Source of the DNA: an uncultured Candidatus Cloacimonadota bacterium | GTDB lineage: Bacteria; Cloacimonadota; Cloacimonadia; Cloacimonadales; JAJBBL01 | Assembly (NCBI GenBank): GCA_964464175.1 | Contig: CAYXFD010000015.1 | Coordinates: forward strand, 1,498 to 65,497 | Length of the DNA: 64,000 nt | Reading direction: 5' to 3' | Shown here: in pieces, positions 38,701 through 60,561 of the stretch | How positions within the stretch are numbered: the first letter of the stretch is position 1 | Layout of the letters: every line of letters starts with the position of its first letter | Program-made: the position numbers and the translations under genes | Notes under the pieces: generated by a model | What the model was told of the DNA's origin: nothing | The model's input: the letters and a program-made list of their open reading frames with translations, nothing else | The model's database searches: none

Positions 38701-39312
38701 GGCATCGGAAAGAGGATGATCTCTTAAGAGCAACTCAAACATATTGTCTGCATCATTTCTCCGGTTCAGGTTTAAGTAAGAAACTCCCATCATGAAAATT
38801 ACATCTGAAATCCTTGGGTCCTGAGGGTAAGTCTTGATAAAATGCTGCCCCTTGGTTATCAGAGCCTGGTATGATGACGTTTTTTCATAACACCGGAGCA
38901 GATAGTAGATAGCAACAGCTTCATGAGTCGATGCCGGATAGGTTTCGGTAAAACTGCCGAAGAGATTTATAGCCGCAGAATACTTTTCCTGTCTGTACAG
39001 GCTGTATGACCAGTAAAAAAAGGCATCTTCCCGCAAATCACTTCTGGGATACCTTTCATAGAATTGCTGATAGAATTTCTCAGCTTCCCTGAATCTCTCC
39101 TCTTTCCTGTGTATCTCAGCCAGCAGGAAGAGTGATTCTTCTCCCTCCGGTGAAGTGGGTCTGCTCTCTGTTATTCTTTCGAAAACGAGAATTGCTTCCT
39201 GATAAAAGCCATCCCGGTACATTCTTTTTCCGAATTCAAAACTCTCCTGCTGAGCAGCAATATACTGCACAGTAATAAAGAGTAAGAATAGCGCTAAAGT
39301 CGTTTTTCTCAT
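35743..39312 (-). CDS. Large exported TPR protein (BamD-like N-terminus, CpoB/YbgF-like C-terminus)
   Basis: Signal peptide followed by TPR-like helical repeats throughout; ends 'AQYWIGESYF...YLKVGYFYP...AELKLAESY...VIRKY'. Confidence 0.85.
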   Translation of the reverse strand: MRKTTLALFLLFITVQYIAAQQESFEFGKRMYRDGFYQEAILVFERITESRPTSPEGEESLFLLAEIHRKEERFREAEKFYQQFYERYPRSDLREDAFFYWSYSLYRQEKYSAAINLFGSFTETYPASTHEAVAIYYLLRCYEKTSSYQALITKGQHFIKTYPQDPRISDVIFMMGVSYLNLNRRNDADNMFELLLRDHPLSDARWEAVIVQNRLILEEQGETAALEYLTNLDLKTIPRQYEEVILKEIADLYITKDKYEKAAETLRMIIDKFDRSDGLAEYLYLYTISQLELIRYPQIIELFRQIDLRELSDSPFFIDYQLKVIETYYLTDRTEQASLIIDDLKEIIEEERHRYQLKYWQARLKERNGVYLEAINDYHDLISNYPQFVITEEILMRIGDIFFERLRLYQSAINYYSQIITDVGFKSDYHWKANYKKALCYTALNDYRAALNSLSQIDIETVTEETSKEEILKQIELLSRYKIVDTEQLSSKLIGSLFRYIETDDKAKLRNDLISVMLFDKKDTEGVLLLLENDQTGKGGYFRGKAYLKALQKADLENRSSERDRYLQKLEEEIAKLDEQLYPEWKDELEIERDYFLKGNSLSVEELIRLERFINQYPQAIAANRFRFMAGFHYLRSEVYAKADEMFSLVVKDQEIPGREYVNSMLEMAEYFFKNDQFGKAISYVERISDRININRPEELFLYAVALLNTDEKSKGLDKLKFLVKNAHFFPSRYKALELIADHYRQSGDHYEVIAYMLLYPENLRDRDYYLRLADDFLMTGNKNRAKESLMFIVEKDEEVLFKLAELHYETDDYLMAEITYNDIIRITSDKENRLTAKSHLAHLEFIKEDYGGSVTIYESLLQEIGERTDYDQYSFLDLKRLGKEMVISLFRVSNRPRADAVLKRFKTILETDPVVTAEIELHEAIYQMSINRSKAEKSFTSLTRNQQLPEKIRAEAYFWRGVNHLENKKTEEARKDFQEVLQAEDQHLRNQANLKLGTISFSKEQFQQALEHYYYVIQNDLKRNLAFDAAKNYAIVCKTIEEWQKAIEAYHIILERWGESGIEGETFFNIAYCQFRDRQYGEAVKSFEKAIPLLTDREMKAEAQYWIGESYFSLNQFDNAATEYLKVGYFYPEYDQWNAIAELKLAESYIRQGRIDNARSILENVIRKYGRDSDWGRQALIYLEQLRN

Positions 39313-43390: not shown

Positions 43391-43435
43391 AAAATAAAAA
43401 AGGACAGAGAAGATCAGCTCCGATGATCTCTGTCC
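43391..43435 (-). terminator. Rho-independent terminator of the TPR-ExbBD-TonB-like operon
   Basis: Minus strand GGACAGAGATCA-loop-TGATCTTCTCTGTCC followed by TTTTTTATTTT, about 60 bp after the last stop. Confidence 0.8.
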
Positions 43436-43496: not shown

Positions 43497-44909
43497 CTAA
43501 TTCCTTTGAAATCTCTTTTGGAATGAGTAGGGAGGCAACTGCTTTGATGTCGGAACGCGCCATTGCATCATTATTTCATAAGCCTTTGCTTTGAAGCTAT
43601 CCGTAAAGAAGCTCCCCGGACGCTCTTCGATCTCTACAGCTTCTACCTGCCCATTGGGCTTGAAGAAGAGAGTAACCTGAACAGAACCGTAAATATTACG
43701 TACTTGCCTTTCCTGGATGAACAGTTCGTCCAATTGGCGCATGTTAGGATCAACATACTGCCTGATACTAATCACTGTTTCTCTTGCTTCCGGAGGCAAA
43801 GTCTCAATAGCAGCCTCATCAACAGTTTCCAAACCTGCCGATAAAGCTCTTTGTCTGGCTCTGCCAATCGCCTCCAATTGATCAGTCCTGGAAATCTGGG
43901 TGTAAGTAATTTCTCCCGTTTCTCCTCCAAGCACACTGGCATCAACGTCTCTCATACCAAGTCTTCTGGCTGTATCAATATCTCCCCGGAACAGCTCACC
44001 GGTCGGCGGGGCACTGGGTGATACAGCACCTACGTCAAAGCTGGAACGTGCTCTTCCCGGAGGTCCGGGTGCTGCAGTTCCCGGTCCGCTACCGCTTCTG
44101 CCTGCCCCTGCTCCTGAAGCTACAATTTGTTCACTGACAGTAGCTACTGCTGGTCCTGATGGTACTTCAACAGCAGGACCGGTAACCTCTCCCGCATCAA
44201 ATCCAAGAATACTCGCTGCTCCTCTTCTGGTAGCAACAGCATCGGTTGGTGCCTCTTCAGCAGGCGGACCTGTTTGCTCTTCAGCCGGTCCTGTTTCCTG
44301 TGTTGGCGGAGGTGGTGGCGGAGCAGGAGGAGCAACTTCCCGCGTAATTTGTACTCTCTGAGCAAGTGTTCTTTCGTAAACCGGTGGAGTATAAGTGTTT
44401 TCAAATACAACTGCTCCGATAATCGCAAGCAAGATGGCAATGATAAACACATTTCGAACTAATTTTGCCTGTGAGTCCAGTTCCGGGCGCCGGTGATATT
44501 CACGGATCATTCTTCTATCTTCATCAGTTACCACTCGGTGATAAGGTTTTACGAATTCATAGGCAATGCTCCAGTCTCCGGCATAAGATACATATCCGGT
44601 GGTATTCTTATCTAACAGCAGTTCATTGTTTTTTAGGAGTTTTTGAGAACGGAGACTATCTTCCGTTAGAATCTCATCTCCCTTCTTCACTGTCAGTTGC
44701 ATCCCTTTGTGAAGAATGAGTTTGAAACTGTCTGCTGCTTTCTTAATCAGTAAGTGCCGTTTGGGAAATGACTTATCCAGGATCTGCCAATGAATGTGCT
44801 TATCACTTCCTACTACAAATTTGTCTTTTATATCTCTGTTTTCTTTGGCGATATCGAGATTTTTACCTTTGTAGTAAAATCTCAAGCTGAGTATCTTATC
44901 TTCGGTCAT
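43497..44909 (-). CDS. GltG/AgmX-PglI-like TonB-type energy transducer (FHA-like N-terminus, TM, Pro/Gly linker, TonB_C-like domain)
   Basis: N-terminal beta domain ('FVVGSD'), one TM 'VFIIAILLAIIGAVVF', 'PPAPPPPPP' and Gly-rich linker, C-terminal 'GSVQVTLFFKPNGQVEAVEI...IMMQWRVP'. Confidence 0.7.
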   Translation of the reverse strand: MTEDKILSLRFYYKGKNLDIAKENRDIKDKFVVGSDKHIHWQILDKSFPKRHLLIKKAADSFKLILHKGMQLTVKKGDEILTEDSLRSQKLLKNNELLLDKNTTGYVSYAGDWSIAYEFVKPYHRVVTDEDRRMIREYHRRPELDSQAKLVRNVFIIAILLAIIGAVVFENTYTPPVYERTLAQRVQITREVAPPAPPPPPPTQETGPAEEQTGPPAEEAPTDAVATRRGAASILGFDAGEVTGPAVEVPSGPAVATVSEQIVASGAGAGRSGSGPGTAAPGPPGRARSSFDVGAVSPSAPPTGELFRGDIDTARRLGMRDVDASVLGGETGEITYTQISRTDQLEAIGRARQRALSAGLETVDEAAIETLPPEARETVISIRQYVDPNMRQLDELFIQERQVRNIYGSVQVTLFFKPNGQVEAVEIEERPGSFFTDSFKAKAYEIMMQWRVPTSKQLPPYSFQKRFQRN

Positions 44910-44921
44910 AAATCCCCCTTA

Positions 44922-45464
44922 TCATGATCCATAGAGTAACTGCGGATCATCCCCTCTTACCGTTGAAAAGTAAATATTGGCAAAGTCGGCATCAGCACCC
45001 AAGGCAACAATGTCTGTTATATAACGGCATTGAATCGTTTCATCTGCTTGTATCAACAACAATGGTAATGAATCAGGATTTTGAGCAACAATTTGAGCTG
45101 ACTGCTCACGCATAAACTGCAACAATTGATTTCTGACATCAGTATCGGTCATAAAATCATCCGGAGTACCAACATACATGTTCTCAGAACCTAACAGAAT
45201 CTGATCAGTGAATACCTTGAGAACAACACTTCGCCCGCTCTTTTCAAGCTCTTCTGCAACTATCGAAGAAGGTAAAGCCATTTGATCCGGAACTGTTAAT
45301 CTCTCAGCATCAAGAGATACATTCTTGATCAAGAAAACCAACAGAATGGTAAGAATGTCGATAAGGGAAGTGATGTTCAAGCTTCTGACTTTCTGGATCT
45401 TTCCTCTTGCTTTTCGCGGACCCCCGCTTGCTGCTCGATTTACTTTATAGGATATCTTTTTCAT
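44922..45464 (-). CDS. ExbD/TolR family protein (AglQ/AglS-like), channel Asp retained
   Basis: TM 'LNITSLIDILTILLVFLIKN' with D36; periplasmic 'LLIQADE'. Confidence 0.88.
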   Translation of the reverse strand: MKKISYKVNRAASGGPRKARGKIQKVRSLNITSLIDILTILLVFLIKNVSLDAERLTVPDQMALPSSIVAEELEKSGRSVVLKVFTDQILLGSENMYVGTPDDFMTDTDVRNQLLQFMREQSAQIVAQNPDSLPLLLIQADETIQCRYITDIVALGADADFANIYFSTVRGDDPQLLYGS

Positions 45465-45547
45465 TATTATCTCTCCAAATAACCTTTAAAATAACTCACC
45501 TTCGGCAATTCTCTAAACAAAGAAGCGAAGTTTTGAGCTATTAAGTG

Positions 45548-46057
45548 TTATAATACCATTACACGTGGTCGTTCATATTTAACTTCGGGGAAACCCCGCA
45601 GCTTTGAGATGTCAATAGCTCTGATCAAAGTTCCGTAATAGACATCCGGATAGGGAGTAATACCAATTTCAAAAACATCCTCATTCCGGCTTTTGATCTC
45701 TGTCAGATGATCATCAAGAGCCAGGTAATCATGTCTCGTTGACCCGTCTGGGGAGAAAATGGCCGGTATTAAAATGGGATCACTTACACCCTCTTCTCTA
45801 ATCTCAATCCTGTCTGTATAGAGAATGATCTTTATCTCTTTAACTTTTTCGACATCACTCGCTTCTCCCCCTTCTCCGCCGGCACCTTCTCCGCCGCTGG
45901 CAGCTAAGTTCAGGGATAACAGAGCCATATGAACTGTTACTGTGATCATAAGGAGCATTGGTATAATGGTAATGAAAAGGTTCATGATCGGCATGAGATT
46001 TAACTCTTGGACGTCTGAACCTTTTTGTGTCCTTCTTTTTGATACTCCTGAAGCCAT
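45548..46057 (-). CDS. ExbD/TolR family protein (AglQ/AglS-like), Asn at the channel Asp position
   Basis: TM 'ELNLMPIMNLFITIIPMLL' with N26; periplasmic 'V.YGTLIRAID...GFPEV'. Confidence 0.85.
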   Translation of the reverse strand: MASGVSKRRTQKGSDVQELNLMPIMNLFITIIPMLLMITVTVHMALLSLNLAASGGEGAGGEGGEASDVEKVKEIKIILYTDRIEIREEGVSDPILIPAIFSPDGSTRHDYLALDDHLTEIKSRNEDVFEIGITPYPDVYYGTLIRAIDISKLRGFPEVKYERPRVMVL

Positions 46058-46061
46058 AATG

Positions 46062-46793
46062 TTATTCCTTGATCGTGTTGTTGATTTGATTAATCATTTT
46101 CACACTGTATTCATCAATATCATTAATTACTTTTTCTGCCCTTGATGACAGAAATCCTTTGATAAACATTGTCGGAATAGCAACACTCAAACCCATTGCT
46201 GTTGTTCCCATAGCCTGCTGGATACCATCAGTAAGAACTCTTTGTTGATCAACCGGTAATGCTACCGCTAAGCCCTTGAAAGCTACCATAAGACCGTAAA
46301 TTGTACCCAGAAGTCCTAAGAGAGTAGCAACCTGAGCGATAATATCAAACCAGAAGAGACCACCGTCAATCTTATGGATTGTCTGTAAACCTGCTTCATC
46401 AAAAGCATTTTGCAGAGTGCTCTTCAAATCTCTACCTTTTACCCCGGCTTTACGAGACTCGTTAAAAACTCTCAATCCGCTCCAAAAAATGAACCCCAGG
46501 GTAGTGCCCTTAAAGTTCTCACTAACCTTTATTGCTTCATCAAAACTCTCGTTTTTGATATAGCCCTTCAATTTAATATAAAAACTCTTTGCATCCAATC
46601 TCTCTTTGACTGATAATTGTATAAACCTTACTATACCCATAATTATGGCACAGAGAAAAAGAAAAGCAATAATATGGGAAAACCAGCCACCACTATTATA
46701 GATCTCTGCTACCTGAGGCCTGGGAGATGATTCTTGTGCGAATAAAGATACATTCATCAGAATTGTTCCCAAAATAATAACCATTTTTTTCAT
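46062..46793 (-). CDS. MotA/TolQ/ExbB proton channel family protein (AglR-like)
   Basis: 'ATLLGLLGTIYGLMVAF', 'AMGTTAMGLSVAIP'. Confidence 0.93.
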   Translation of the reverse strand: MKKMVIILGTILMNVSLFAQESSPRPQVAEIYNSGGWFSHIIAFLFLCAIIMGIVRFIQLSVKERLDAKSFYIKLKGYIKNESFDEAIKVSENFKGTTLGFIFWSGLRVFNESRKAGVKGRDLKSTLQNAFDEAGLQTIHKIDGGLFWFDIIAQVATLLGLLGTIYGLMVAFKGLAVALPVDQQRVLTDGIQQAMGTTAMGLSVAIPTMFIKGFLSSRAEKVINDIDEYSVKMINQINNTIKE

Positions 46794-46818
46794 AAAGAAC
46801 TCCTTTCTCCTTAATTTG

Positions 46819-47088
46819 TCAGTATAACTCTTTATTTGATTCCAGTAAAATCTCTCTGAGATAATTCAAGGTAAAATTTATTTCATCCGTTCTGGTTCGA
46901 GGTTGAATAGAGGCTTCAGGAATTCTTTCCACAATCTCATCATCAAACACTTCTGTATCGACTAATACTCTTGTACCGCCTCTCCGCGTAGTTGTTTGCC
47001 CGGATTCCTGTGCTATCAGTGATACCGAAAGAACAAAGACAATCAAAATTGCTAACAGAACTATTATACCTGTCCGCTTGTTTCCCAT
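46819..47088 (-). CDS. Small exported protein, GltF/CglF-like
   Basis: 89 aa with signal peptide; 'FDDEIVERIPE...RTR...EILLESNKEL' echoes the recalled CglF pattern 'F-D-D-I-G-P...R...F...S..EL'; position between the TPR genes and exbB. Confidence 0.6.
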   Translation of the reverse strand: MGNKRTGIIVLLAILIVFVLSVSLIAQESGQTTTRRGGTRVLVDTEVFDDEIVERIPEASIQPRTRTDEINFTLNYLREILLESNKELY

Positions 47089-47102
47089 GGTCTATCCTCC
47101 GA

Positions 47103-50100
47103 TTATCGTTTACTAACCATTACTTCCATATTGAAAATGATAGCCTGATCATCAGCGCTGCCATCAGTTTCAATCAGGATGGTGTTTTGTCCCACAACAA
47201 AATTCTCTATCGGTATATTTATATTGTGGATATAATACGACTTTTCTAATTCTTCGTCATACACTATTTCAGGCTCAGATACTATTGAGTAGCCGTTGAG
47301 CATAATCATACTGGTATCGTAAGCCACAAAACTCAGAGAAGCTTCAACCACTTCCCCATCAACTTCGAAATTTCTCATGAAATATGCCTTCTCTTCTCTG
47401 GCTTCAACTTCGCTATCCAAATTGAGGGTATCCGGTTCTGCGATCTCTGTTTCTGCTGCAGACAACCATATCGGAACAGCTTCTGTCTCATCCATTCCGA
47501 TCATCTCTTTCAATCTGGAAACTTCAGAAACTATTGCTGCTGTATTCCAATCAGCCATATCCAGATTGTCAATCAGATCGGAACGGGCAGCTAACCAGTC
47601 ATTATTAGAATATAAATACATTCTTTCTGTTAACAATCCCCAGTCTCCAAGTCTCTCCATGGCTGCTTCGGTGAATTGGTCACTATATTCCAAATTGTAG
47701 ACAAAATTTGTGACAAGATTGTTGTACCAGCCGGCACTTTCATACCGGAGAAAGTTAACATACGGTTCCCGGTAATTCACGTTAAAAGAATCGATATAGA
47801 CGTTGTATTCATCTTCATCGTAATCACGCAGTTCTCTCATCTGATTTGATACATTATAGAATCGTTCCATCTGGATATCAACGACTTCGGCAGCATAATC
47901 ATATACTCTTCCGATAAGGTAGATAGCCCGGGTGTTAAGTTCAAGACTTACGCCTTCTTCATAATCTCGTGCCTGTACGAGCAGACCCATAATAGTATCA
48001 CGCTGTTTGTCAGCTTCTGTTATGATACCGTCTAATCTTTTTACACCTCCCGCCATGTGCTCCATCCAGGTTGTATGCTGATTGACCCTGATCAGATCAT
48101 TTGGTTCGGCATTGACAAAATTCTCTTCGATTTCATCCAATGTTCTTTCGAAAGCAACCAGAAATGCCCTGTATTCTCTGATCCGTTCAACTGTAAAACG
48201 GAAATCCTCAAAATCAAGATAAAAATCTTCCAGGTCCAGAACCAGATTCTCTTCTCTGAATTGACGGTCTAAGTCCCTGAATTCTTCGATTGCGGCAAAC
48301 ATTTCATCAAATTTTTCTTCGCTTAACAATTCTACAATATCATCATATTTCTCCAGAATTCTATTTCTGGCAATATTCTCATATAATTTGGAATCCGGAT
48401 TTCTCTGAAAGATATAACGGGCAAGTTCTTCGAATTCTTCCTGCATATCCATTTCCAGGTATTGCCCGGCAACATATTCCAATAGACCGTCAGTTCTGGG
48501 ATCTTCGGAATACCTCTCAGTAAAACCTAACATCAGGGATACTAAGAATTCTTTGTCTTCCGAATCGTGATATAGATTGATCGCATCATAATATATATCT
48601 TCTGTATTATCATCTCCGTGATCAATCCTGCCGGCAACTGCGTCTTCATGGAGTTCTAACAGCATATCTGCTGCCCGGTACTTAGTCTCCTCTTCCCGTG
48701 CCAGCTCTTCGATTATCTCATATCTTGTCCGGTAAGCTTGATTAGAAGCAGGATATTTCTCAACATATTCATGTCTTATCTCATCTCTTAGAATTTTATC
48801 ACTCATCAAAGTATCAGCAATATCCCAGGCAGACACATAAAGAAAATATGCCTCCTGCGGTTCACTTCTGTACTCTGACAATCCGATCAACAGATCAATG
48901 GCAGTTTCATATTCTTGAGCCTTAACATAGGAATTGATGGCTTCGTGAGTTAAGCCGACAAATCTGGAAACATCGGTAGTCCTGAATTCTTCAGCAAGCC
49001 TGAGATACTCCTGAGCAGCTTCCACATAGGAACTGTCGGCGGCGAGAGTATTTGCTTGTTCTTGCATCAGACGCCGGTAATTGTTTCCGATATTCTGTCT
49101 GTCATCTTCATCCAGAGCAAAGTCAGCAGCACTTCTGAAATAATTCTCTGCCTGCAGATAGTCTCCCCGAGTTCTGTTTATATCAGCTAAATTGACATAG
49201 ACCTCTCGTTTCAATTCACTGGAAATTTCCAGATCCAAGAGTGCTAACATATCGGCTTCAGCCTCAGAATACATCTCTTTGTCGAGATAGATCAGACTTC
49301 TCTTGTAATATGCTCCGATAATGTCTTCCAGATAGTCTTCAATAATCTCCGGATCAGAAAAGGTATCAATGAATCCCTGAGTACTGGTAATATATATATC
49401 TGAAAGGTCTTCTTTACTAATAGTCAGATCCTTTTCTTCATTGCTGTATGGTTCTTCCTCTAATTGATCATTAAGCTGGGTATAGAGATTTTCAATAACC
49501 AAAAACTTGCTGAACTCATATTCCAGATAATCATCATTATCCGGATACATCTCGTTGAAGTCAGTAATTATCTGATATGCCTGCAGATAATAAAAGGGTT
49601 CCTCTTTGGATTGAGCAAAATCGAGAGCACCGCTTACAATACTGTTCTGAGCCTGCTTTAACCATTTCTCCCCCCTCTCATCGCTAAATTCGGGAAACTC
49701 CTGATAGCGGGCAACAAACTCACGATACTCAGCAAAACTATCATCACTTCTATCTGTAACAAAACGGTTGAAATATCTCGGCTGCAAGAATTCATAGGCA
49801 GAACGGATCAATTCAATTTGTTCGCTGATATCATTTTGAGAGTTGTGTTGATACCACTCAGTATCTACGTGGAAAGCTGTTATCAGTTTCTCTTTCTGGG
49901 CATATACTCTGTTTCTGACTTCTTCTTCATCGGTGATCATATAGGAATATCGTTGATACATTGTTGCCATGGAATCAACTATCATCGGATTCTCTGGGGC
50001 GAGAGGAAACATCTCCAAAAAAGCTTCCATATAATTTACAGCGTGAAAAGGTGCATTCAAATCGAGCTTAAGCTCGATAACCCGGCGTATGATGCTGTCT

Positions 50101-51014
50101 GAGTATTCATCGCTATCAATTAGATCAAACAGATTATCTTGAGCAAATTCCACCGATTTGGCTGGAGAAAAGTAATCCCCTTCATCCATTCTTTCCAGGC
50201 TATAGGCAATATTCTCTATCGCATCATACTCGAAGTACGATCTCAATATCTCGTCCTCTTCAACTACATTCAGAATATCAGAAAAATCCTCAATAGCTTC
50301 GGTGAAACGTCCCGTGCTGAAGTTAGCCCAGCCTCTTTGATACAAACCAAAATAACGGTAATCATCTTTGTCTTTTTCGACTACCTGATTCAGCAAATTC
50401 TTTGCCCGTTCATAATACTCTCTCGGCACATCTGCATCCAAACCAATTTCATAGAGCAAGACAGCCAGTCGATAGATACTCTCGGAATGATATCTTGATT
50501 CAGGAAAACGTTCGATTATCTCCTTGTAGGAATCTACAGCCTCTTTCAGACTCGCTTCCGATAATCTGTACTCACCTTCCCAGGTTAAGATTGGCTCTAT
50601 TCTCTCCTCTTCCTGCAACTTGCGGATATACTCCGCTCTTCGTTGATCACGTTGTTTTTTGGCATAGTCGGAAGAGTAGAAGGCAATATTGTAGAGAATG
50701 ACATCACGCATGGGATGATAAGGATTGATCTCTAAGACTTTCTGATAATTCTTCAGTACTTTTTCCGGCTCGGTCAGGTAGATCTCCGAACTCAGTTCTG
50801 CTAATTTCAAATAAAGCTCATCAATGTTGTTATAATCGGGATGCTTTTCGATAAAATCTTCGATTGCTTCATATACCTGATGTTTATACGTCAAATTATT
50901 ATCATAGATCCGAAGAAGTTCCTTTTCCGAAGCAAACAAACTTGCCGCACCAAATACAAATATGAATAACAGTCCGAGTAATAACGACAGACGACCATTG
51001 TTATGTTTCATCAT
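47103..51014 (-). CDS. Large exported acidic TPR protein (GltD/AgmU-like) with C-terminal jelly-roll domain
   Basis: Signal peptide, TPR-like repeats ('DVILYNIAFY', 'SIYRLAVLLY', 'YQRGWANF'), beta-rich C-terminus. Confidence 0.75.
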   Translation of the reverse strand: MMKHNNGRLSLLLGLLFIFVFGAASLFASEKELLRIYDNNLTYKHQVYEAIEDFIEKHPDYNNIDELYLKLAELSSEIYLTEPEKVLKNYQKVLEINPYHPMRDVILYNIAFYSSDYAKKQRDQRRAEYIRKLQEEERIEPILTWEGEYRLSEASLKEAVDSYKEIIERFPESRYHSESIYRLAVLLYEIGLDADVPREYYERAKNLLNQVVEKDKDDYRYFGLYQRGWANFSTGRFTEAIEDFSDILNVVEEDEILRSYFEYDAIENIAYSLERMDEGDYFSPAKSVEFAQDNLFDLIDSDEYSDSIIRRVIELKLDLNAPFHAVNYMEAFLEMFPLAPENPMIVDSMATMYQRYSYMITDEEEVRNRVYAQKEKLITAFHVDTEWYQHNSQNDISEQIELIRSAYEFLQPRYFNRFVTDRSDDSFAEYREFVARYQEFPEFSDERGEKWLKQAQNSIVSGALDFAQSKEEPFYYLQAYQIITDFNEMYPDNDDYLEYEFSKFLVIENLYTQLNDQLEEEPYSNEEKDLTISKEDLSDIYITSTQGFIDTFSDPEIIEDYLEDIIGAYYKRSLIYLDKEMYSEAEADMLALLDLEISSELKREVYVNLADINRTRGDYLQAENYFRSAADFALDEDDRQNIGNNYRRLMQEQANTLAADSSYVEAAQEYLRLAEEFRTTDVSRFVGLTHEAINSYVKAQEYETAIDLLIGLSEYRSEPQEAYFLYVSAWDIADTLMSDKILRDEIRHEYVEKYPASNQAYRTRYEIIEELAREEETKYRAADMLLELHEDAVAGRIDHGDDNTEDIYYDAINLYHDSEDKEFLVSLMLGFTERYSEDPRTDGLLEYVAGQYLEMDMQEEFEELARYIFQRNPDSKLYENIARNRILEKYDDIVELLSEEKFDEMFAAIEEFRDLDRQFREENLVLDLEDFYLDFEDFRFTVERIREYRAFLVAFERTLDEIEENFVNAEPNDLIRVNQHTTWMEHMAGGVKRLDGIITEADKQRDTIMGLLVQARDYEEGVSLELNTRAIYLIGRVYDYAAEVVDIQMERFYNVSNQMRELRDYDEDEYNVYIDSFNVNYREPYVNFLRYESAGWYNNLVTNFVYNLEYSDQFTEAAMERLGDWGLLTERMYLYSNNDWLAARSDLIDNLDMADWNTAAIVSEVSRLKEMIGMDETEAVPIWLSAAETEIAEPDTLNLDSEVEAREEKAYFMRNFEVDGEVVEASLSFVAYDTSMIMLNGYSIVSEPEIVYDEELEKSYYIHNINIPIENFVVGQNTILIETDGSADDQAIIFNMEVMVSKR

Positions 51015-53068
51015 TCGTCCTCCCCTTCAGAAAAAGCCCTTTCATCCTGCTCCATCAAATACCGGTACTCCTGATTTCTTCTGATGTTTTCCTGGAAAAG
51101 AATATCTAACAATGCATACTCATATCCCTGATTGATCTGCTCAATGTCGCTTCTGGTTTCCTTTATACTTTTCAGTATTGTTGTATGTGTCGGTTCACTC
51201 TCCTGGAATGACTCGATATTCATTCTCTCAATTCTATCTGCCATTCGTTCGTGATAAGATTCAGCAGCCTGAGCTTTCATGGAGATCAGGCTTGTTCTGG
51301 TTTCGGTGACAGTTGCCATCTCCTGCATTATGTCATTCACATAAGGATCCTCCTGATCAATGTAGCCAAACATCAGATCTGCCTCTTCCTTATAAAGATC
51401 CAAAGTCTCTGCTACAAGTGATTTGTCATGCTCTGACAATCTCTCCTTATTATCTTCCAAAAAATTCTGGTAATAGACTATTCTTGTAGCTATTGATCTC
51501 GCTTCTGCTGCTCTCGCGTCCAGCCATTTCTTTCGTTCCGACATGTATAAATGTCTGGCATAAGCAGTATTACCCCGTCCTCTGACAGATTGAGGAACAA
51601 ATTCATCCATTACATTATTAACATACACCTCAGTCAAAAGATCGACTTTCAATGTATCCAGATCATAGATTTGATACTGGATTTGCCTGACTATCGGGTC
51701 ATTCGGTCTGGTTCTTACAATCTTGGCAAGTTCGTAAGTCTCCGCAATAACTTCCAGTAAGCCGACATATTCTTCATTGATCATCTTATTGACATTAAGT
51801 GTGTACCAATCAATTCCGAAAACTTCCAGATTCGTTTTCCTCTGAGTAATCTCTTCATATTGAAATATATTGTTGAACAGCTGATCTATTACTTCCAGAT
51901 TATCTTCGTAAACTATCTCTTCTACACGATCTCTCATTCTTTCAATGAGTTTGGTTTCATATTCCAGAAAAGTATGATAGGTCCTGTTAGTAAATAAAAC
52001 ATCACTGATAATATCCTGTGATACCTCAAAACCTTCGGTAAATACTTTAATCCCGGCTATCTGTGTCAGAGCCTTTTCGTATATCGGACTCTGTTCTGCA
52101 TATTCAATAATCTGCTCCAGATAAGACAATGCCCTGTCATAATCACCCAGAGCATAATAGATCAAAGAAATCTCATATAACAGCTCATCAGTCAGCTGAT
52201 TATCGATTATGTTAACGTATTGTTCATAGTACTGCAGAGACTGGACAAAGTTACCCTGCTCTCCATAGATACGAGCTAATGTCAGGATCAAAAAGCCATA
52301 GTACTCTTGACTTTGATCATACTGATCTGCTAAACTTTGCAAAATGCCTGTTGCCTGTTCCGTATCAAAGGTGGCATAGGCAATAATTCCCAACATTACC
52401 CGGGAACGGAAACCAAAGTCAGCATTAGTACTCAGATTTTCGAATACCCTCCGGGAATTATCGTATTCCCTGAGATTGAAGTAGGCATGCGCCAACCTGT
52501 AGCTGCTTTGGGGACTTGAGAATTGGGGAAATCTGATATGGAGATTTACAATTTCTCTGTTCAATCCCTCTCTGAAATAAAGAGTATCAAGAAAGCCAAA
52601 AGCCTGCCTGATCTTCGAGGATTGCTGATAATTATCGACAAAGTAAATCAGCTTGTCTTTTGCTTCAGCAAAGTTTTGTTGATAATAATCATAGAGAGCA
52701 TCATAAAATCGGTAGAGATCTTCCACATACTCAATATCTCTGTAAACTATTCTTATCTCCTGATGTTTTCTCTCAATGAACAAAACATCATATTCACTAT
52801 AAGCTGCCTCTAACTCATTAACTACTCTGTTGAAGGACTCTAAGATCAAACCCCGGTGACCTGCTTTCTGATATTGCTCGATCAAATCCTTTTGCTCGGT
52901 AAGATAATTAAGATACTGCAATTCTTCTTCAACACTATCCAGTAATTCCTGTTCGGCTCTTATGTCGGCAAACAATAGATTAGGGTTGGAAAAAAATTTC
53001 CCCGAGATCAGAATTGAACCAATAAATAATATATGTAGAATATAAATTACCTTTCTCATAGTTTCCAT
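51011..53068 (-). CDS. Exported TPR protein with coiled-coil tail (Glt TPR-like)
   Basis: N-terminal hydrophobic leader, TPR repeats ('YRLAHAYFNLREY', 'LLYEISLIYYALGDY'); 4-bp overlap with the next gene. Confidence 0.75.
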   Translation of the reverse strand: METMRKVIYILHILFIGSILISGKFFSNPNLLFADIRAEQELLDSVEEELQYLNYLTEQKDLIEQYQKAGHRGLILESFNRVVNELEAAYSEYDVLFIERKHQEIRIVYRDIEYVEDLYRFYDALYDYYQQNFAEAKDKLIYFVDNYQQSSKIRQAFGFLDTLYFREGLNREIVNLHIRFPQFSSPQSSYRLAHAYFNLREYDNSRRVFENLSTNADFGFRSRVMLGIIAYATFDTEQATGILQSLADQYDQSQEYYGFLILTLARIYGEQGNFVQSLQYYEQYVNIIDNQLTDELLYEISLIYYALGDYDRALSYLEQIIEYAEQSPIYEKALTQIAGIKVFTEGFEVSQDIISDVLFTNRTYHTFLEYETKLIERMRDRVEEIVYEDNLEVIDQLFNNIFQYEEITQRKTNLEVFGIDWYTLNVNKMINEEYVGLLEVIAETYELAKIVRTRPNDPIVRQIQYQIYDLDTLKVDLLTEVYVNNVMDEFVPQSVRGRGNTAYARHLYMSERKKWLDARAAEARSIATRIVYYQNFLEDNKERLSEHDKSLVAETLDLYKEEADLMFGYIDQEDPYVNDIMQEMATVTETRTSLISMKAQAAESYHERMADRIERMNIESFQESEPTHTTILKSIKETRSDIEQINQGYEYALLDILFQENIRRNQEYRYLMEQDERAFSEGEDE

Positions 53069-53148
53069 CCCATAAAATGGCTTGTTAGTGGGTAACTCAT
53101 GCTGCCGAGATCACTATTATGGTCTTTAAGTTTTTTTTTGGATCCGGA

Positions 53149-54093
53149 TTAATCCTCTTCCAACAACAATCTTCTGATCTCTTCCAGTTCTCTTTCAGCC
53201 CTTTCTCTTTGACGTCGGATTCTCTGCAATTCATCGAGGGTTTCCTCGTCTGTTTCCCTTCTGCGGTCTCTGATCTGTGGATCACCGGGTGCCGCTGTTC
53301 TTGGTGTTGGTAAGATCACAGCCCGTTCATCCGGAGAAACATAATGGTCGAAAACATAAGAGAGAGTCAGAGCAAATTTCGGATCACGCCTGCTCCATTC
53401 CTCAACCCGATAGAGATCCACACGGGCAGAAACGTTGTTATTAAAACTATATTCAGCACCCATATTCAAGTTGTGTCCGTCAATCTCAAAAATAGTGGAA
53501 AGATTCCTCATTGGTTCAAACTGGAGAGCTCCAAAAATACCGCTGAACTGCTCTGAAAAATCTACGGTCCCCTGAAAACGATGTGCCCCGGCACCCAATG
53601 TTACCCTTGCCGGGATTTCTCCCATTTCAGGAAAGGCGGTAAAGAGAGTTGTTTTGGATATAGCTACATACATGGAATTACCTCGGTAATTGTGCTCATC
53701 AATCATATCAAGGTAATCTTTCGTATTGGGTTTAGCAGAAACTGTCGAGAAAGCATTATCCAGACCGATGGCTATATCTGGCAGGGTTAATGTCTCTCTT
53801 AATATTCTTCCCTTGAGATGAGCATAATATACTTCATCACCGGTAGCCACAAATCCGATCTCTCCATAATTCAAAATCCCAATATTGACTGCACCTGCCC
53901 AGTTATAGGCAAAATCGTCACCTTTCAGATTATTTTCTGGGTACATGTAGTTATTGATCGAAATTTTCCCCATAAGATGAGGCATAACTCGGGCATCAGG
54001 TACTCTTATATTACCGTAATTTGCAAACGGAAAGGCATTCAAGTATCCAATGAAAACTAAAAAAACGATACAAAACACAAAGCACTTTTTCAT
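53149..54093 (-). CDS. YjbH-like outer-membrane beta-barrel with C-terminal coiled-coil tail
   Basis: Signal peptide, 'GNIRVPDARV', alternating amphipathic strands ('FGALQFEP', 'NLNMGAEYSF', 'FALTLSYVF'), then a Pro-rich linker and an R/E-rich helix. Confidence 0.6.
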   Translation of the reverse strand: MKKCFVFCIVFLVFIGYLNAFPFANYGNIRVPDARVMPHLMGKISINNYMYPENNLKGDDFAYNWAGAVNIGILNYGEIGFVATGDEVYYAHLKGRILRETLTLPDIAIGLDNAFSTVSAKPNTKDYLDMIDEHNYRGNSMYVAISKTTLFTAFPEMGEIPARVTLGAGAHRFQGTVDFSEQFSGIFGALQFEPMRNLSTIFEIDGHNLNMGAEYSFNNNVSARVDLYRVEEWSRRDPKFALTLSYVFDHYVSPDERAVILPTPRTAAPGDPQIRDRRRETDEETLDELQRIRRQRERAERELEEIRRLLLEED

Positions 54094-54732: not shown

Positions 54733-56424
54733 ATGAAGAGGATACAATTCAGCAGTAACAAAGAGATAGATTCTCTGCTTAATAATGTAGTTCGTAAGAT
54801 AGACAGCTTTGTCCAGAAGCAGCGTAATAAGATTGAACGCCTGACTAATATTGGTTTAGCCCTCTCCTCCGAAACAGATATTAACGATACCTTTGAGACC
54901 ATTCTGGAGGGTGCCCTCGATTTCACCTCCGCTGATGGAGCTACTCTCTACATTGTCTCGGCTGATAAACAGGAGCTGGAGTTCAAGTTGGTTTATAATC
55001 GTTCTCTTCTGGTAAGATTCGGGGGGAAATCAAAAAAGCCGGTTCCCTGGCCCAGTGTTAAGCTCTACCATAACGGTGATGAAAGAAATCTTAATACCAT
55101 GGTAACCTACGTTTTTCATACAGGGAAAGCGTATGTTGTTGATGATGTATATGAACAGCGGGATTTTGACAATTCGGGAACACTCAAATACGATAAAGAG
55201 AACAATTACCGCTCCAAATCAATGATCGGCGTTCCTCTCAAGAATAATGACGGCGATGTTCTGGGGGTTATTCAGCTTCTGAATGCTACCTCCTCCAACG
55301 GTAAGGTCGTCAGTTTCTCTGAGGAGCAGGTAGTTCTGCTCAAATCATTGGCATCTCAGGCTGCCATTGCTTTGACCAATAAGTCCTTGATTGCTGAGTT
55401 GGAAAGATTGCTGCACGATTTTGTCAAAACGATTGCCTATACACTTGACCAGAAATCCCGCTACTCGGGGAAACATATTTCACGGGTTGCCACATTAACA
55501 GAGATGCTCTCTAATAAAGTCCATGAATGCGAATGTGAAGCCTATAAAGATGTCTCCTTTTCAGAATCTCAGCTGGAAGAGATATCCATGTCGGGCTGGT
55601 TGCACGATATCGGGAAGATCGTAACCCCTGAATACATCATGGACAAATCAACGAAACTGGAAAAGATCATAGATCTCATCGAGATTATCGAGCTTAGATT
55701 TGCCTTAGTAAAGACTGCTGTTGAAAAGAAGATCTTACATTTGCAGCTCGCCGGAAAAGCCCACAAAAAAATTGTTGAGTATGAAAAATTGTTGGCAGGA
55801 TTTGATGACGATCTGGAATTTGTCAGGAAGCTCAATATCGGAGCTGAATTTGTTGAAGATTCGGCCATAGAGAGGTTGAAACGAATCCGGGATTTCAGAT
55901 TTAACGACGGCGACAGGGATTATTATCTGATCTCCGAGGAAGAGCATTTTTTACTTTCGGTCAGAAAAGGAACTCTGAGTCCTCAGGATTTGGTCATAAT
56001 GCGGGAACATGTTGTCAAGACCGACGAAATATTATCGCAGCTCTCCTTTCCGAAGAAGTTCGGGAATCTTCAGCTTTATGCTTCCTCCCATCACGAAAAA
56101 ATCAACGGCAAGGGTTATCCCAAAGGTTTAAAGGGAGAAGAGCTTCCGGTCCAGGCAAGAATAATTGCCATCGCTGATATCTTTGAGGCAATAACTGCTG
56201 CCGACAGACCGTACCGGAAAGGTAACAAACTATCAGCAGCCTTGAAGATCATGGCTTTTATGGTCAGAGATGGGGAACTTGATAATAATCTCTATACTCT
56301 TTTACTGGATTCGGGTCTTTATCTGGAATATGCAAATAAATATCTCAAAAAAGAGCAGATAGACGAAGTAGATATCGAGCAATTAAAAAGTATTGCCGCA
56401 ATGATCAAGTTCGCTTCCAATTAA
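54733..56424 (+). CDS. GAF + HD-GYP cyclic di-GMP phosphodiesterase
   Basis: GAF 'ADGATLYI...KSMIGVPLKN...GVIQLLN'; 'LHDIGK'; 'HHEKINGKGYP'; 'IADIFEA...RPYR'. Confidence 0.93.
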   Translation: MKRIQFSSNKEIDSLLNNVVRKIDSFVQKQRNKIERLTNIGLALSSETDINDTFETILEGALDFTSADGATLYIVSADKQELEFKLVYNRSLLVRFGGKSKKPVPWPSVKLYHNGDERNLNTMVTYVFHTGKAYVVDDVYEQRDFDNSGTLKYDKENNYRSKSMIGVPLKNNDGDVLGVIQLLNATSSNGKVVSFSEEQVVLLKSLASQAAIALTNKSLIAELERLLHDFVKTIAYTLDQKSRYSGKHISRVATLTEMLSNKVHECECEAYKDVSFSESQLEEISMSGWLHDIGKIVTPEYIMDKSTKLEKIIDLIEIIELRFALVKTAVEKKILHLQLAGKAHKKIVEYEKLLAGFDDDLEFVRKLNIGAEFVEDSAIERLKRIRDFRFNDGDRDYYLISEEEHFLLSVRKGTLSPQDLVIMREHVVKTDEILSQLSFPKKFGNLQLYASSHHEKINGKGYPKGLKGEELPVQARIIAIADIFEAITAADRPYRKGNKLSAALKIMAFMVRDGELDNNLYTLLLDSGLYLEYANKYLKKEQIDEVDIEQLKSIAAMIKFASN

Positions 56425-57189: not shown

Positions 57190-58167
57190 ATGATTCGAAT
57201 TGATAATTTGACCAAGTATTATGGTTCTGTCAGAGCAGTCAACAGAATCAGCTTTCAAGTCGGTGAGGGTGAGATTCTCGGTTTTCTCGGCCCTAACGGT
57301 GCCGGTAAATCGACAACCCTGAAGATCCTCACCTGCTTTCTGACCCCAACAGAGGGTAATATCTTCATCGATCAGTATAATATCTATGAGAACTCCACCA
57401 AGATCCGGGAACTGATCGGTTATCTTCCTGAAAACAATCCCCTTTATCTCGATATGACAGTCTATGATTATCTCCGTTTTATCGGTGAATTACGGGGTCT
57501 GAGCCAGACGGTTTTTAACAGGAATCTGCGTAATGTTATTGATAAGTGCGGGCTTACCGGAGTTGTCTCGAAACCGATTCATACTTTATCCAAAGGTTAC
57601 AGGCAGAGAGTCGGGATCGCCCAGGCAATTCTCCATGACCCCAAGATCCTGATCCTTGACGAACCAACAGCGGGACTTGATCCCAATCAGATAATGGAGA
57701 TCAGGGACTTGATAAAGGAATTAGGCAAGGAAAAGACCCTGATCCTTTCCAGCCATATCCTGCAAGAGGTTCAGGCTGTCTGTAACCGCATAATCATTAT
57801 CAATAAAGGTGATATTGTCGCCGACGGGACAATAGATGAATTGCAGTCAGCTCTTCAGGGTAAAACGAGGTTAAATCTGGAAGTAATAGCTGAGGGTTTT
57901 GAACCGGAGGAGCTGAAAAGCAGCATTCCCAAACTGGATATCCTCAGTATCTCTGCTAATCCTTATCTGAAAAAGAGAGACGATATAGAGAAGGAACAAC
58001 CCGATAACCTTTATCTTGTTGTTGAATATAACTCTGAGGAAGATTTACGGGAGGTTATCTTCAATTACTTCAAAAACCATAACTGGACAATCCTGGAAAT
58101 GCATAGAGAATTTATGAGTCTGGAAGACTTGTTCAGAACACTCACAATCGAAAGAGGAGTAGCCTGA
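57190..58167 (+). CDS. ABC transporter ATP-binding protein (GldA-like)
   Basis: Walker A 'GPNGAGKST', 'LSKGYRQRVGIAQA', Walker B 'ILDEPT', 'SSHIL'. Confidence 0.93.
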   Translation: MIRIDNLTKYYGSVRAVNRISFQVGEGEILGFLGPNGAGKSTTLKILTCFLTPTEGNIFIDQYNIYENSTKIRELIGYLPENNPLYLDMTVYDYLRFIGELRGLSQTVFNRNLRNVIDKCGLTGVVSKPIHTLSKGYRQRVGIAQAILHDPKILILDEPTAGLDPNQIMEIRDLIKELGKEKTLILSSHILQEVQAVCNRIIIINKGDIVADGTIDELQSALQGKTRLNLEVIAEGFEPEELKSSIPKLDILSISANPYLKKRDDIEKEQPDNLYLVVEYNSEEDLREVIFNYFKNHNWTILEMHREFMSLEDLFRTLTIERGVA

Positions 58168-58883
58168 TGAAGAACAAAACAGCTATACTCATCGCCCATG
58201 AATTAAAAAACTATTTTCATTCCGCAACAGCCTACGTCGTTCTGGTTGTTTTTCTCTTAATAACCGGATGGTTTTTTGCCAGCCCCTTGTTTCTCGTCGG
58301 ACAAGCTGAATTAAGATCTCTCTTCAGCACCATACCCTGGATATTCCTGCTCTTTATCCCGGCAATAACAATGGGCAGCATAACAAAAGAGAAAACCTCC
58401 GGAACCCTGGAAACTCTGGCAACTCTCCCTTTGAAGGAGAGCCAGATCGTAATGGGTAAATACTGGGCAGCAGTTCTGCTGACCTTAACCGGAATTATTT
58501 TTACCCTCGTTCATCTGGTAACGATCGTTCTTTTGGGTTCCAATATAGATTACGGAGCCATTTTTTGCGGTTATCTCGGTCTGGTTATGATCGGAGCAGT
58601 TTACTCGGCAATAGGGATTTTTACTTCATCACTGACCAGTAATCAGATCGTAGCCTTCATCGTCAGTTTCCTGTTCATCTTTTTCTTTGTCATAGCCGAA
58701 TTTATTCTCATTTTCCTCCCTGGTCCGCTCGTTGAAGTTTTTCAATATCTCAGCATTGGCTATCATTTCTCGAATATCTCCCGCGGGGTCATTGATACCA
58801 GAAACGTCATCTATTTTCTGAGTTTGATAATCCTCTTCCTGCGGCTGGCGGTGGTAACCCTGGAATCGAGAAAGTGGAAATAG
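58167..58883 (+). CDS. ABC-2 permease (GldF-like)
   Basis: 6 TM; 'FIPAITM...EK.SGTLETL.TLP', 'GKY', 'SNQIVA', 'RGVID'. Confidence 0.9.
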   Translation: MKNKTAILIAHELKNYFHSATAYVVLVVFLLITGWFFASPLFLVGQAELRSLFSTIPWIFLLFIPAITMGSITKEKTSGTLETLATLPLKESQIVMGKYWAAVLLTLTGIIFTLVHLVTIVLLGSNIDYGAIFCGYLGLVMIGAVYSAIGIFTSSLTSNQIVAFIVSFLFIFFFVIAEFILIFLPGPLVEVFQYLSIGYHFSNISRGVIDTRNVIYFLSLIILFLRLAVVTLESRKWK

Positions 58884-58893
58884 GGGGCAAGTC

Positions 58894-60561
58894 ATGAAGA
58901 AAAATCAAACCTCAACCAATGGAAATGATCTCAGGAAAAACAAGAACAGAAGGATTCATCACAAGGGAGTAATCTTTAACATTGCCGTCATTCTCGGTAT
59001 TCTGATTGTCGTTAATCTGATCTCGATCAATGTCTTTGCCCGTCTTGACCTTTCCCGCGGCAAGATCTACTCTCTTTCCCGCTCCAGCAAAGAGACCGTC
59101 AGAGAATTACCGGACAGACTATTGATCAAAGCTTTCTTCACCCAAAACCTTCCTGCTCAGCTGGCTGATGCTCACCGCTATACCAGAGACATGCTCGCCG
59201 AATATCAAGCCTATTCCAGAGGAAGGATCCGTTTCGAGTTTGTCGATCCGAGTGACGAAGAACAACTCCGCCAGGAAGCCCAGAAAAATCAGATCATGCC
59301 GGTTTCCATGAGAGTAGTGGAAGATGACAAGCTCGAGATCAGAGAAATATACATGGGGCTGGTATTCTTCTACCGGGGAGAGACAGAATCTATCCCCTTC
59401 ATTCAGGATACAAGAGGACTGGAATATGATATTACCAGCACAATTAAGAAGATAACGGACATCGGGAGAAAGAGTGTCGGCTTCTTCAAGTCAGAGGAGG
59501 AAATGCCTCCGGTAATGCCGGGCAGGCAGCAGCCTCAGACAAGATACGAAAGATTTACGCAGATGATCTCCGATCACTATGACCTTGAGACCATAGATCT
59601 GATGTCTCCCGTTGAACCTCATATTAAGACAGTAGTACTGGGAGGAGTCACTGACTCTCTGCATATAGAACAGCTATACAATCTCGATCAGTTCATCATC
59701 AGAGGAGGCAAAGCCCTGATCTTTCAGCAAAGGGTAAAGGCAGACCTGCAAAACATCTCTGCCGCTCCGATCAAATCTAATCTCTTTCCTCTTCTGGAAC
59801 ATTACGGGATAAGGATGAGAGAAAATCTGGTAACCGATGCCAATGCCGGTCAGATCCAGGTGCAAAGACAGCAGGGGATCTTCAGTTTCGCTACCCCCGT
59901 CAACTACCCCCCCTTCCCGGTAATCAATAATGTCAATAAGGATAATCTCATCACCAAAAATCTCGAGAATATCCAGCTTGTCTTCGTCTCGGAACTTGCC
60001 ATCCCGGAAGAGCAAGATAACCCGGCAGTTACCCCTCTCTTGAGAACTTCCGATTTTTCAGGAGAGATTTCAGCTCCCTCGTTTGATATCTCATTCGAAA
60101 AATACATGCAGCAGCGGGATTTGCGCCGTATCTTAACTGCACCGGCAAAAACTGTCGGAGCCCTCTATGAGGGAGTCTTTGAAAGCTTTTATCTCGATAT
60201 GTTCCCTGAGGAGACCGATCCTCTGTCCGAAGATTTCCATTACCGGACAACTGATGCCGGAATCATTCTGGTCGCTGATTCCGATTTCATCAAAGACGGT
60301 GCCGGTGCCGGCGCTAATGCCAATATGGACTTCGTTCTCAACTCCATCGACTATCTGATGGGAGACACCGCTCTGATCGAGATCAGAGCGAGAGAGACTG
60401 TTTTCAGACCCTTAAGAGAACTGAGCAGTACTCACCGCAAATTTGTCCGCTGGACAAATATCCTGCTCCCCTCCTTTCTGCTGCTGGTATTCGGATTGGT
60501 CTATTACCGCAAACAGATCCGGAAAAGAAAACTGATCAGAAAGATCTATGAGCAGGAATGA
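58894..60561 (+). CDS. GldG family protein (DUF7088 + ABC-type uncharacterised transport auxiliary domain)
   Basis: 'RLDLSRGKIYSLS.SSKE', 'EFVDP', 'LEYDITSTI', 'ADSDF', 'N.DFVLNSIDYL', C-terminal TM. Confidence 0.9.
   Translation: MKKNQTSTNGNDLRKNKNRRIHHKGVIFNIAVILGILIVVNLISINVFARLDLSRGKIYSLSRSSKETVRELPDRLLIKAFFTQNLPAQLADAHRYTRDMLAEYQAYSRGRIRFEFVDPSDEEQLRQEAQKNQIMPVSMRVVEDDKLEIREIYMGLVFFYRGETESIPFIQDTRGLEYDITSTIKKITDIGRKSVGFFKSEEEMPPVMPGRQQPQTRYERFTQMISDHYDLETIDLMSPVEPHIKTVVLGGVTDSLHIEQLYNLDQFIIRGGKALIFQQRVKADLQNISAAPIKSNLFPLLEHYGIRMRENLVTDANAGQIQVQRQQGIFSFATPVNYPPFPVINNVNKDNLITKNLENIQLVFVSELAIPEEQDNPAVTPLLRTSDFSGEISAPSFDISFEKYMQQRDLRRILTAPAKTVGALYEGVFESFYLDMFPEETDPLSEDFHYRTTDAGIILVADSDFIKDGAGAGANANMDFVLNSIDYLMGDTALIEIRARETVFRPLRELSSTHRKFVRWTNILLPSFLLLVFGLVYYRKQIRKRKLIRKIYEQE

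Follow-up and report, generated by a model that had tools for sequence, protein, structure and literature searches.

A ‘core complex’ (Group B) of the Agl-Glt machinery was defined by Luciano et al. in 2011 as a cluster of aglR, aglQ, aglS, gltC, gltD, gltE and gltG plus one extra gene; GltF is not a core gene by this definition (PMC3169522). Carriers of the core were reported amongst the Gamma- and Betaproteobacteria, Geobacter and Fibrobacter, and its function was given as unknown (PMC3169522). It is regarded as a basal transport machinery that is insufficient alone for gliding (PMC3169522, PMC3858216). This proton-driven complex is the ancestor of both the gliding and the spore-coat machinery of Myxococcus. 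For Fibrobacter succinogenes S85 (Fisuc_1892-1897), Table S3 of the same study lists a GltC-like protein of 746 aa, a GltD-like protein of 1292 aa, an ExbB, an ExbD and a TonB-like protein of 308 aa, with no entry for GltE (PMC3169522). Here, an operon of eight genes was examined in a 64,000-nt stretch of DNA (the window) from an uncultured Candidatus Cloacimonadota bacterium (contig CAYXFD010000015.1, positions 1,498 to 65,497). The operon very probably encodes an envelope-spanning machine of the Agl-Glt/Nfs core complex type. It is new to Cloacimonadota but of an already known kind, namely the core of Luciano et al. that has been reported in Fibrobacter, and no paper describing an Agl-Glt-core-type system in Cloacimonadota was found in the literature.

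The original prediction, made from the sequence of the window, had described eight co-oriented and closely spaced genes that end at one terminator and encode, in order, a beta-barrel, two tetratricopeptide repeat (TPR) proteins, a small exported protein, TolQ/ExbB, two ExbD/TolR proteins and a TonB-like protein with an FHA-like N-terminus and an AgmX/PglI-type tail. All eight open reading frames were found where expected (54093-43497, minus strand; all coordinates are positions within the window), the genes overlapping by 4 nt at the closest and standing 83 nt apart at the widest. The hairpin and U-run of the terminator were present, and the domain calls were borne out by Pfam, NCBIfam and AlphaFold2/Foldseek. 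The features are as follows.

P0001, 53149..54093, minus strand: 314 aa; signal peptide and predicted outer-membrane beta-barrel.
P0002, 51011..53068, minus strand: 685 aa; periplasmic TPR protein, GltC-like by position and weak profile similarity.
P0003, 47103..51014, minus strand: 1303 aa; predicted periplasmic GltD-like TPR scaffold.
P0004, 46819..47088, minus strand: 89 aa; secreted; putative GltF counterpart by position and motif.
P0005, 46062..46793, minus strand: 243 aa; predicted AglR-type TolQ/ExbB stator subunit.
P0006, 45548..46057, minus strand: 169 aa; ExbD/TolR paralogue 1, with Asn26 at the channel Asp position.
P0007, 44922..45464, minus strand: 180 aa; ExbD/TolR paralogue 2, with the channel Asp36 kept.
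P0008, 43497..44909, minus strand: 470 aa; predicted GltG-like transducer (FHA, transmembrane helix, linker, TonB-C).
Intrinsic terminator, 43392..43435, minus strand: strong; 13-bp hairpin GGACAGAGAUCAUCGGAGCUGAUCUUCUCUGUCC followed by UUUUUUAUUUU (U-run), about 60 nt past the last stop codon.

A scan for sigma-70 promoters gave no signal above the shuffled background.

At the level of sequence, products of the operon are homologous to the AglR-type ExbB, the ExbD pair of such motors, GltG and GltD. The GltD relationship was examined with hhalign. When the P0003 family was aligned with the Myxococcota proteins found at the GltD position, a probability of 99.8% (E 3.4e-30) was obtained over 878 collinear columns, almost end to end. 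In both, the GltD-like gene is preceded by a GltC-like gene and followed by the motor. As controls, long TPR proteins of a generic kind were used, one of them a 1189-aa TPR protein that is also encoded in the window, and these aligned to the P0003 family over just 89-155 columns. The link is therefore specific relative to generic TPR controls, and P0003 is considered to be GltD-like. A profile built from residues 30-1080 of the family was searched against 1.8 billion representative proteins and recovered its own family first, followed by proteins of 1000-1500 aa at E values of 1e-20 to 1e-12. Two named proteins amongst these matches are Myxococcota TPR proteins, and their loci are Glt-type clusters. 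One of them (L040) encodes an 809-aa TPR, an 1111-aa TPR and a 434-aa TPR protein, a 127-aa protein, ExbB, two small proteins and proteins of 454 and 199 aa, while the other (L041) encodes proteins of 779, 1200, 465, 89 and 451 aa. Proteins of these two loci match the NCBIfam models for GltC, GltE and GltG and the AgmX/PglI tail with E values of 4e-14 to 4e-51, and the two proteins at the ExbD position in L040 do not match ExbD profiles.

The 1189-aa protein used as a control (35743-39312, minus strand) is very rich in YbgF-type TPR_6 repeats (2.9e-43) and has no relationship to the GltD-like family outside a stretch of about 100 columns. Proteins of about 1050-1100 aa that resemble it were the strongest generic TPR matches in the search of representative proteins.

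The last 170 or so residues of P0003 (about 47106-47620) are beta-rich, and the GltD-like family ends in one or two beta-jelly-roll-like domains. Sub-threshold hints were to PF21467 (0.004, in two of seven members) and to GH35 beta-galactosidase (E 0.13), and this C-terminal domain may be galactose-binding-like.

The transducer P0008 was modelled with AlphaFold2 from 19 aligned homologues. The model contains a confident beta-sandwich at residues 1-120, one transmembrane helix (about 150-172), a Pro/Gly-rich segment that is disordered (about 184-340) and a helical and TonB-C-like module (about 342-467). The top Foldseek matches of the N-terminus in the PDB were all FHA domains, with a TM-score of 0.6-0.72 for most of the single-domain FHA targets. 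On examination of the alignment by eye, the canonical phosphothreonine-binding Arg and Ser are apparently replaced (‘GS’, ‘FPKRH’), and for this reason the domain may be of a non-phosphopeptide type. A search of PDB sequences with P0008 found nothing significant, and the tail of the single protein gave weak matches to Pfam TonB_C (0.013) and NCBIfam AgmX/PglI (0.003). Across the family, 18 of the 19 members match the AgmX/PglI tail model NF033768, all below its 40-bit cut-off, and two match the generic TonB_Cterm model. Alignment of the family with the GltG-like proteins of Myxococcota gave an hhalign probability of 98.1% (E 7e-14) over 392 columns and the full length, and the GltG-like proteins in question match NF033760 at 1e-47 to 1e-51.

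P0005 matched Pfam MotA_ExbB (2e-21). TolQ was its best match in NCBIfam, and TolQ structures were its best sequence matches in the PDB (3e-10). The P0005 family was also aligned with the AglR-like proteins of Myxococcota Glt loci, with an hhalign probability of 97.5%. Relatives were collected with the ExbB alignment from a set of genomes in which each GTDB species is represented once, and 68 loci were picked by similarity to the query. The nearest ExbB proteins from outside Cloacimonadota were those of Bdellovibrionota, Myxococcota, Fibrobacterota, KSB1, Nitrospirota, Gemmatimonadota, Zixibacteria, Gammaproteobacteria, Cytophagia and Calditrichota. A GltD-like gene is located upstream of ExbB in 42 of the 68 loci, and most of the others are stand-alone ExbB-ExbD-ExbD triplets, which is how aglRQS is arranged in Myxococcus xanthus. 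In the ExbB tree, all of the sequences with a Glt or Agl context fell together with the Cloacimonadota clade (support 99) in a clade of 78 rows (SH-aLRT 91), and TolQ and ExbB of Escherichia coli and both of the other ExbB proteins of the genome fell outside it. As the loci were selected by similarity to the query, the tree is supportive but not conclusive in placing P0005 with the AglR type, apart from canonical TolQ/ExbB.

The two ExbD paralogues matched Pfam ExbD at 2.6e-5 (P0006) and 1.2e-9 (P0007) and differ at the position of TolR D23. The first has Asn in all 18 Cloacimonadota orthologues, while the second has Asp in all 17 Cloacimonadota orthologues and in 59 of the 60 others. In other phyla, Asn was found in the first ExbD of 31 of the 40 motors located beside GltD-like genes, and Asp in 16 of the 19 stand-alone triplets. 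Judged from these alignments, the Asn of the first ExbD is a synapomorphy of core-type motors.

P0005 has a signal-peptide-like N-terminal extension (…SLFAQE). The acidic residue found in the third transmembrane helix of E. coli TolQ/ExbB is apparently Gln in P0005 and variable in relatives, as read from the alignment by eye. The genome contains three MotA/ExbB genes. One of the other two (C19:35500-37400; L004 7529-9349) is in a set encoding a TPR protein (533 aa), ExbB, ExbD and TonB (258 aa) that is preceded by a GWxTD-domain gene. In the second (C3:44700-50100; L005 4765-10103), a receptor-like gene of 985 aa is followed by ExbB-ExbD-ExbD-TonB (209 aa).

The remaining TPR protein, P0002, is encoded directly upstream of the GltD-like gene, as is GltC. 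Both P0002 and P0003 carry TPR repeats (Pfam) and gave weak YbgF matches (NCBIfam). The P0002 family aligned with GltC-like proteins of Myxococcota at a probability of 93.2% (E 3e-7) over 275 columns, and also with GltD at 88%, while the KSB1 protein found at the same position gave 97.7% (E 2e-12). P0002 does not match the NCBIfam model NF033756. In two Cloacimonadota lineages P0002 and P0003 are fused in a single polypeptide that matches both (L035, 2148 aa; L036, 1739 aa), which indicates that the two proteins work together. A fusion was also considered for a lineage with a TPR protein of about 1950 aa and was rejected, as the N-terminal 530 or so residues have no BLAST similarity to P0002.

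GltF has so far been regarded as particular to Myxococcota and Bdellovibrionota. When P0004 was compared with 17 other Cloacimonadota clusters, 16 of them were seen to have a small reading frame of 72-117 aa with a signal peptide at the same position, between the GltD-like gene and ExbB. The P0004 family has a core motif, (I/V)xGx(I/V)xKP, in common with small proteins encoded upstream of ExbB in at least nine other phyla, including the GltF-like proteins of Myxococcota; in these other phyla a hydrophobic strand comes after the motif. Alignment of the P0004 family with a cross-phylum set of 27 GltF-like sequences gave a probability of 86.6% (E 4.5e-6) over 37 columns, at the motif, and with two Myxococcota GltF-like proteins alone the probability was below 30%. 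From the motif and the position, GltF and the additional gene of the published core probably belong to one family, a conclusion with moderate support. The C-terminus of the small protein is SNK(E/L)LY in most families, NKWLKESK in the lineage with the TPR protein of about 1950 aa and EPF in the Myxococcota GltF-like proteins. This conserved free C-terminus may be a docking peptide.

The first gene of the operon encodes a protein with no Pfam or NCBIfam family match. The AlphaFold2 model of P0001 (17 homologues; pLDDT 73.7, pTM 0.66) has 12-13 beta strands. The chain starts with a signal peptide, forms the barrel at about residues 42-248 and then passes through a disordered linker into a long C-terminal helix (272-313), which is conserved, is predicted to be periplasmic and has the conserved motif LLxELxxIRxxRxxAEKELxEIR. 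Its best Foldseek matches in the PDB are the outer-membrane barrels FapF, OmpF/OmpC and KdgM (TMt 0.65). The family was also compared with what is encoded ahead of the first TPR gene in 36 loci from other phyla, and a match to the C-terminal helix (32 residues) in KSB1 was the only one. In separate hidden Markov model searches, the barrel family matched a contig assigned to ‘Desulfuromonas sp. SDB’ (2e-49) and, weakly, Gemmatimonadota. The cluster on the former (L063, LKUE01000281.1) has an ExbB that branches as the sister of the Cloacimonadota clade, and is either a case of horizontal transfer or a mis-binned contig.

A survey of synteny across Cloacimonadota, as proposed in the original prediction, recovered all eight genes in one order in all 14 genomes taken from other families, as well as in ten named metagenome-assembled genomes; some loci of this set have fused TPR genes and two are cut by a contig end. 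The gene arrangement is not due to chance. A homologue of the GltD-like protein was found in 115 of the 151 Cloacimonadota genomes, which come from 35 of the 53 genera. In relatives the cluster is often bordered by dnaE, one or two GWxTD-domain genes and yraN on one side and by priA on the other (L006-L010), a neighbourhood that is absent from the window, and in one instance (L046) ParAB, an M23 peptidase and a bactofilin are encoded beside it. On these gene contents and alignments, Cloacimonadota have conserved the core as a module that is passed on mostly by vertical inheritance.

The likeness to the Agl-Glt core that had been proposed for the operon was thus upheld for ExbB, the ExbD pair, GltD and GltG, but not for the assignment of the TPR pair as GltD and GltE: the 685-aa protein is the GltC-like one, the 1303-aa protein is GltD-like and a GltE homologue was not found. 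GltF had been counted as part of the core, which the published definition does not do. A grouping of the ExbB, ExbD and TonB-like proteins with canonical systems, together with a lack of similarity of the small and TPR proteins to GltF, GltD and GltE, had been named as the contrary outcome. Instead, ExbB fell in the clade with the Glt/Agl-context sequences and the alignments with GltD, GltG and the GltF-like set were obtained.

Several points weigh against assignment to the core. GltE is one of the genes of the published seven-gene core, and its profile did not match in any Cloacimonadota locus, nor does the operon have a third TPR gene. None of the curated NCBIfam Glt models reached its cut-off on the window proteins (GltJ 0.034, AgmX/PglI tail 0.003). 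The ExbB tree included few canonical outgroups, and its loci had been chosen for their similarity to the query. A BcsC-like TPR protein aligned to the P0003 family over 565 columns (1e-17), which indicates that long TPR solenoids can align without close kinship, so that the TPR evidence needs synteny beside it. The identification of P0002 as GltC-like, by position and profile similarity, is weak (93%), as is that of P0004 as the GltF counterpart by position and a short motif (86.6%). No counterpart of the barrel was detected amongst the genes upstream of GltC in the Myxococcota clusters. A search for evidence of transcription found no RNA runs, only DNA metagenomes from sludge. Finally, the function is entirely inferred.

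Amongst the other explanations, the one that survives best is a functional equivalent of Tol-Pal, in which a TolQ-TolR-TolA-like motor, CpoB/YbgF-like TPR proteins and an outer-membrane anchor would serve outer-membrane tethering and constriction at division, not surface transport. We consider this quite unlikely. It is favoured by the TolQ matches of P0005, by the weak YbgF matches of both TPR proteins and the strong ones of the GltD-like relatives, and by the wide vertical conservation and the housekeeping neighbours of the cluster in relatives. It is also favoured by the finding of no TolB match above the cut-off in the genome, which is 100% complete, or elsewhere among the 151 genomes surveyed in the phylum, and of no Pal match above the model cut-off in the genome. 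However, the TolB model also misses its cut-off in a Bacteroides control, and the absence of TolB is therefore not conclusive. Frames of about 400 aa that resemble TolB occur in genomes carrying the cluster, so the two are not mutually exclusive, and the GltD-like gene is absent from 36 of the 151 genomes. The cluster is linked to Glt systems by its ExbB clade, by the Asn-bearing ExbD and by its AgmX-type tail. The Tol-Pal explanation concerns function alone and is compatible with a Glt-core ancestry. The possibility that loss of TolB tracks the presence of the cluster was examined in the 151 genomes; no anti-correlation was seen, but the comparison carries no information, with neither the genomes nor the Bacteroides control reaching the TolB cut-off. 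Together with the failure of the control, this leaves the replacement of Tol-Pal as a bare possibility.

A working surface-motility (gliding) motor in Cloacimonadota is very unlikely. The homology to the Agl-Glt core and an ABC transporter resembling GldA/GldF/GldG, located 3 kb from the operon, could be taken to favour one, and surface motility was amongst the functions originally suggested. However, nothing in the locus supports it, and in the published view the core genes alone do not drive gliding (PMC3169522). GltJ had no match in the genome (GltI, CglB and AglZ were not searched for), and there are no GltA/B/H/K-like genes in the cluster, the barrel family matching no gene upstream of Myxococcota GltC. 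The ABC transporter is not kept beside the cluster in relatives.

Nutrient uptake by a TonB-ExbB-ExbD system that energises an outer-membrane transporter is suggested by the weak TonB_C match of P0008 and by the barrel in the same operon, but is extremely unlikely, as the barrel has about 12 strands and no plug and is not a 22-stranded TonB-dependent receptor, the genome has the separate ExbB-ExbD-ExbD-TonB set beside the receptor-like gene and a further ExbB-ExbD-TonB set, P0005 is outside the canonical ExbB group, and the generic TonB C-terminal model is matched by far fewer members of the P0008 family than the AgmX/PglI tail (two against 18 of 19).

For the core-type machine, the following arrangement may be proposed. 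An ExbB pentamer would surround a heterodimer of the ExbD paralogues, of which just one (with Asp36) would be protonatable, and this stator would turn proton flow into movement of the single-pass, GltG-like P0008. The Pro/Gly linker and AgmX-type TonB-C head of P0008 would cross the periplasm, where they would engage the GltC/GltD-like TPR scaffold, the GltF-like protein and the dedicated outer-membrane barrel of 12 strands, the last through its periplasmic C-terminal helix. The FHA-fold domain could be a cytoplasmic docking or regulatory site. From the relatives and the phylum-wide vertical conservation, the most likely role would be that of a basal device, driven by the proton-motive force, that pulls or moves an outer-membrane or surface component, for example in the handling of a surface polymer or in outer-membrane tethering; it is probably not a gliding motor. 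The wide and mostly vertical conservation, together with the lack of TolB and Pal matches above the cut-offs, fits a housekeeping role in the envelope.

A broader generalisation is tentative, and we think it unlikely. The Glt core could be a third general class of 5:2-motor envelope machine beside Ton and Tol-Pal, found in at least ten phyla. Its marks would be an inherently asymmetric heterodimer of ExbD paralogues, with Asn in one and Asp in the other, a transducer of the AgmX type that has an FHA domain, and a small GltF-like protein present throughout. In Cloacimonadota, which may lack canonical Tol-Pal, it would have its own 12-stranded barrel and act as a housekeeping link between the outer and inner membranes.

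The operon is flanked by unrelated, differently oriented genes, namely PAP2 and ornithine carbamoyltransferase genes at one end and an HD-GYP/GAF gene at the other end. The survey of window genes found no TolB, Pal or TonB-dependent receptor near the operon, in agreement with what had been predicted. The GAF and HD-GYP gene (c-di-GMP phosphodiesterase-type; 54733-56424, plus strand) is divergent from the operon across a 640-nt intergenic region and is a possible regulatory neighbour. The GldA/GldF/GldG-like transporter (57190-61550, plus strand) consists of an ABC ATPase, an ABC-2 permease, ABC_transp_aux (PF09822, GldG family) and DUF4340. The named homologues of the operon are from metagenome-assembled genomes of Cloacimonadota, which backs the predicted origin, and DNA of the window was found in sludge metagenomes.

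Cloacimonadota are abundant in anaerobic digesters. The function of the core complex has been an open question since 2011, and the finding of this operon does not on its own reveal it. The core is now seen as a module conserved at the level of an uncultured phylum, where a defined partner in the outer membrane goes with it, and family-wide signatures have emerged in the Asn/Asp ExbD pair and the GltF-like KP motif. The conservation, the partner and the signatures offer starting points for the modelling of structures and for genetic work in carriers that are tractable (Fibrobacter, Cellvibrio, Cytophagia).

When compared with known systems, the operon shares with Tol-Pal an inner-membrane proton motor of the 5:2 type, a single-pass transducer that spans the periplasm, CpoB/YbgF-like TPR content and an outer-membrane partner. 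It differs in having two ExbD paralogues, one of which has no Asp, an FHA-bearing transducer, giant TPR proteins and an ExbB that is outside the TolQ/ExbB group. With the Agl-Glt and Agl-Nfs systems of M. xanthus it shares a motor of the TolQR type that has a pair of TolR paralogues, a transducer with FHA and TonB-C domains (GltG, NfsG), periplasmic TPR proteins (GltC/D, NfsC/D) and a small GltF/NfsF-like protein. The M. xanthus order A/B(barrels)-C-D-(E)-F-G parallels the barrel-C-D-F-[motor]-G of Cloacimonadota, but in the latter the motor is encoded in the same cluster and nothing links the operon to motility or sporulation. The core of the proteobacteria has GltE, which the Cloacimonadota operon does not.

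The cluster of F. succinogenes S85 differs from that of Cloacimonadota in three respects. The Cloacimonadota operon adds the outer-membrane barrel of about 12 strands with its periplasmic C-terminal helix, its GltG-like protein of 470 aa keeps the FHA domain while the listed Fibrobacter protein is of 308 aa, and its GltD-like protein ends in one or two beta-jelly-roll-like domains. The two share the gene order, in which the TPR genes are followed by ExbB, two ExbD and a TonB-like GltG homologue, similar sizes of the TPR proteins (746 aa compared with 685 aa here, and 1292 aa compared with 1303 aa here), the same ExbB clade, Asn in the first ExbD, no GltE and a small secreted KP-motif protein encoded upstream of ExbB.

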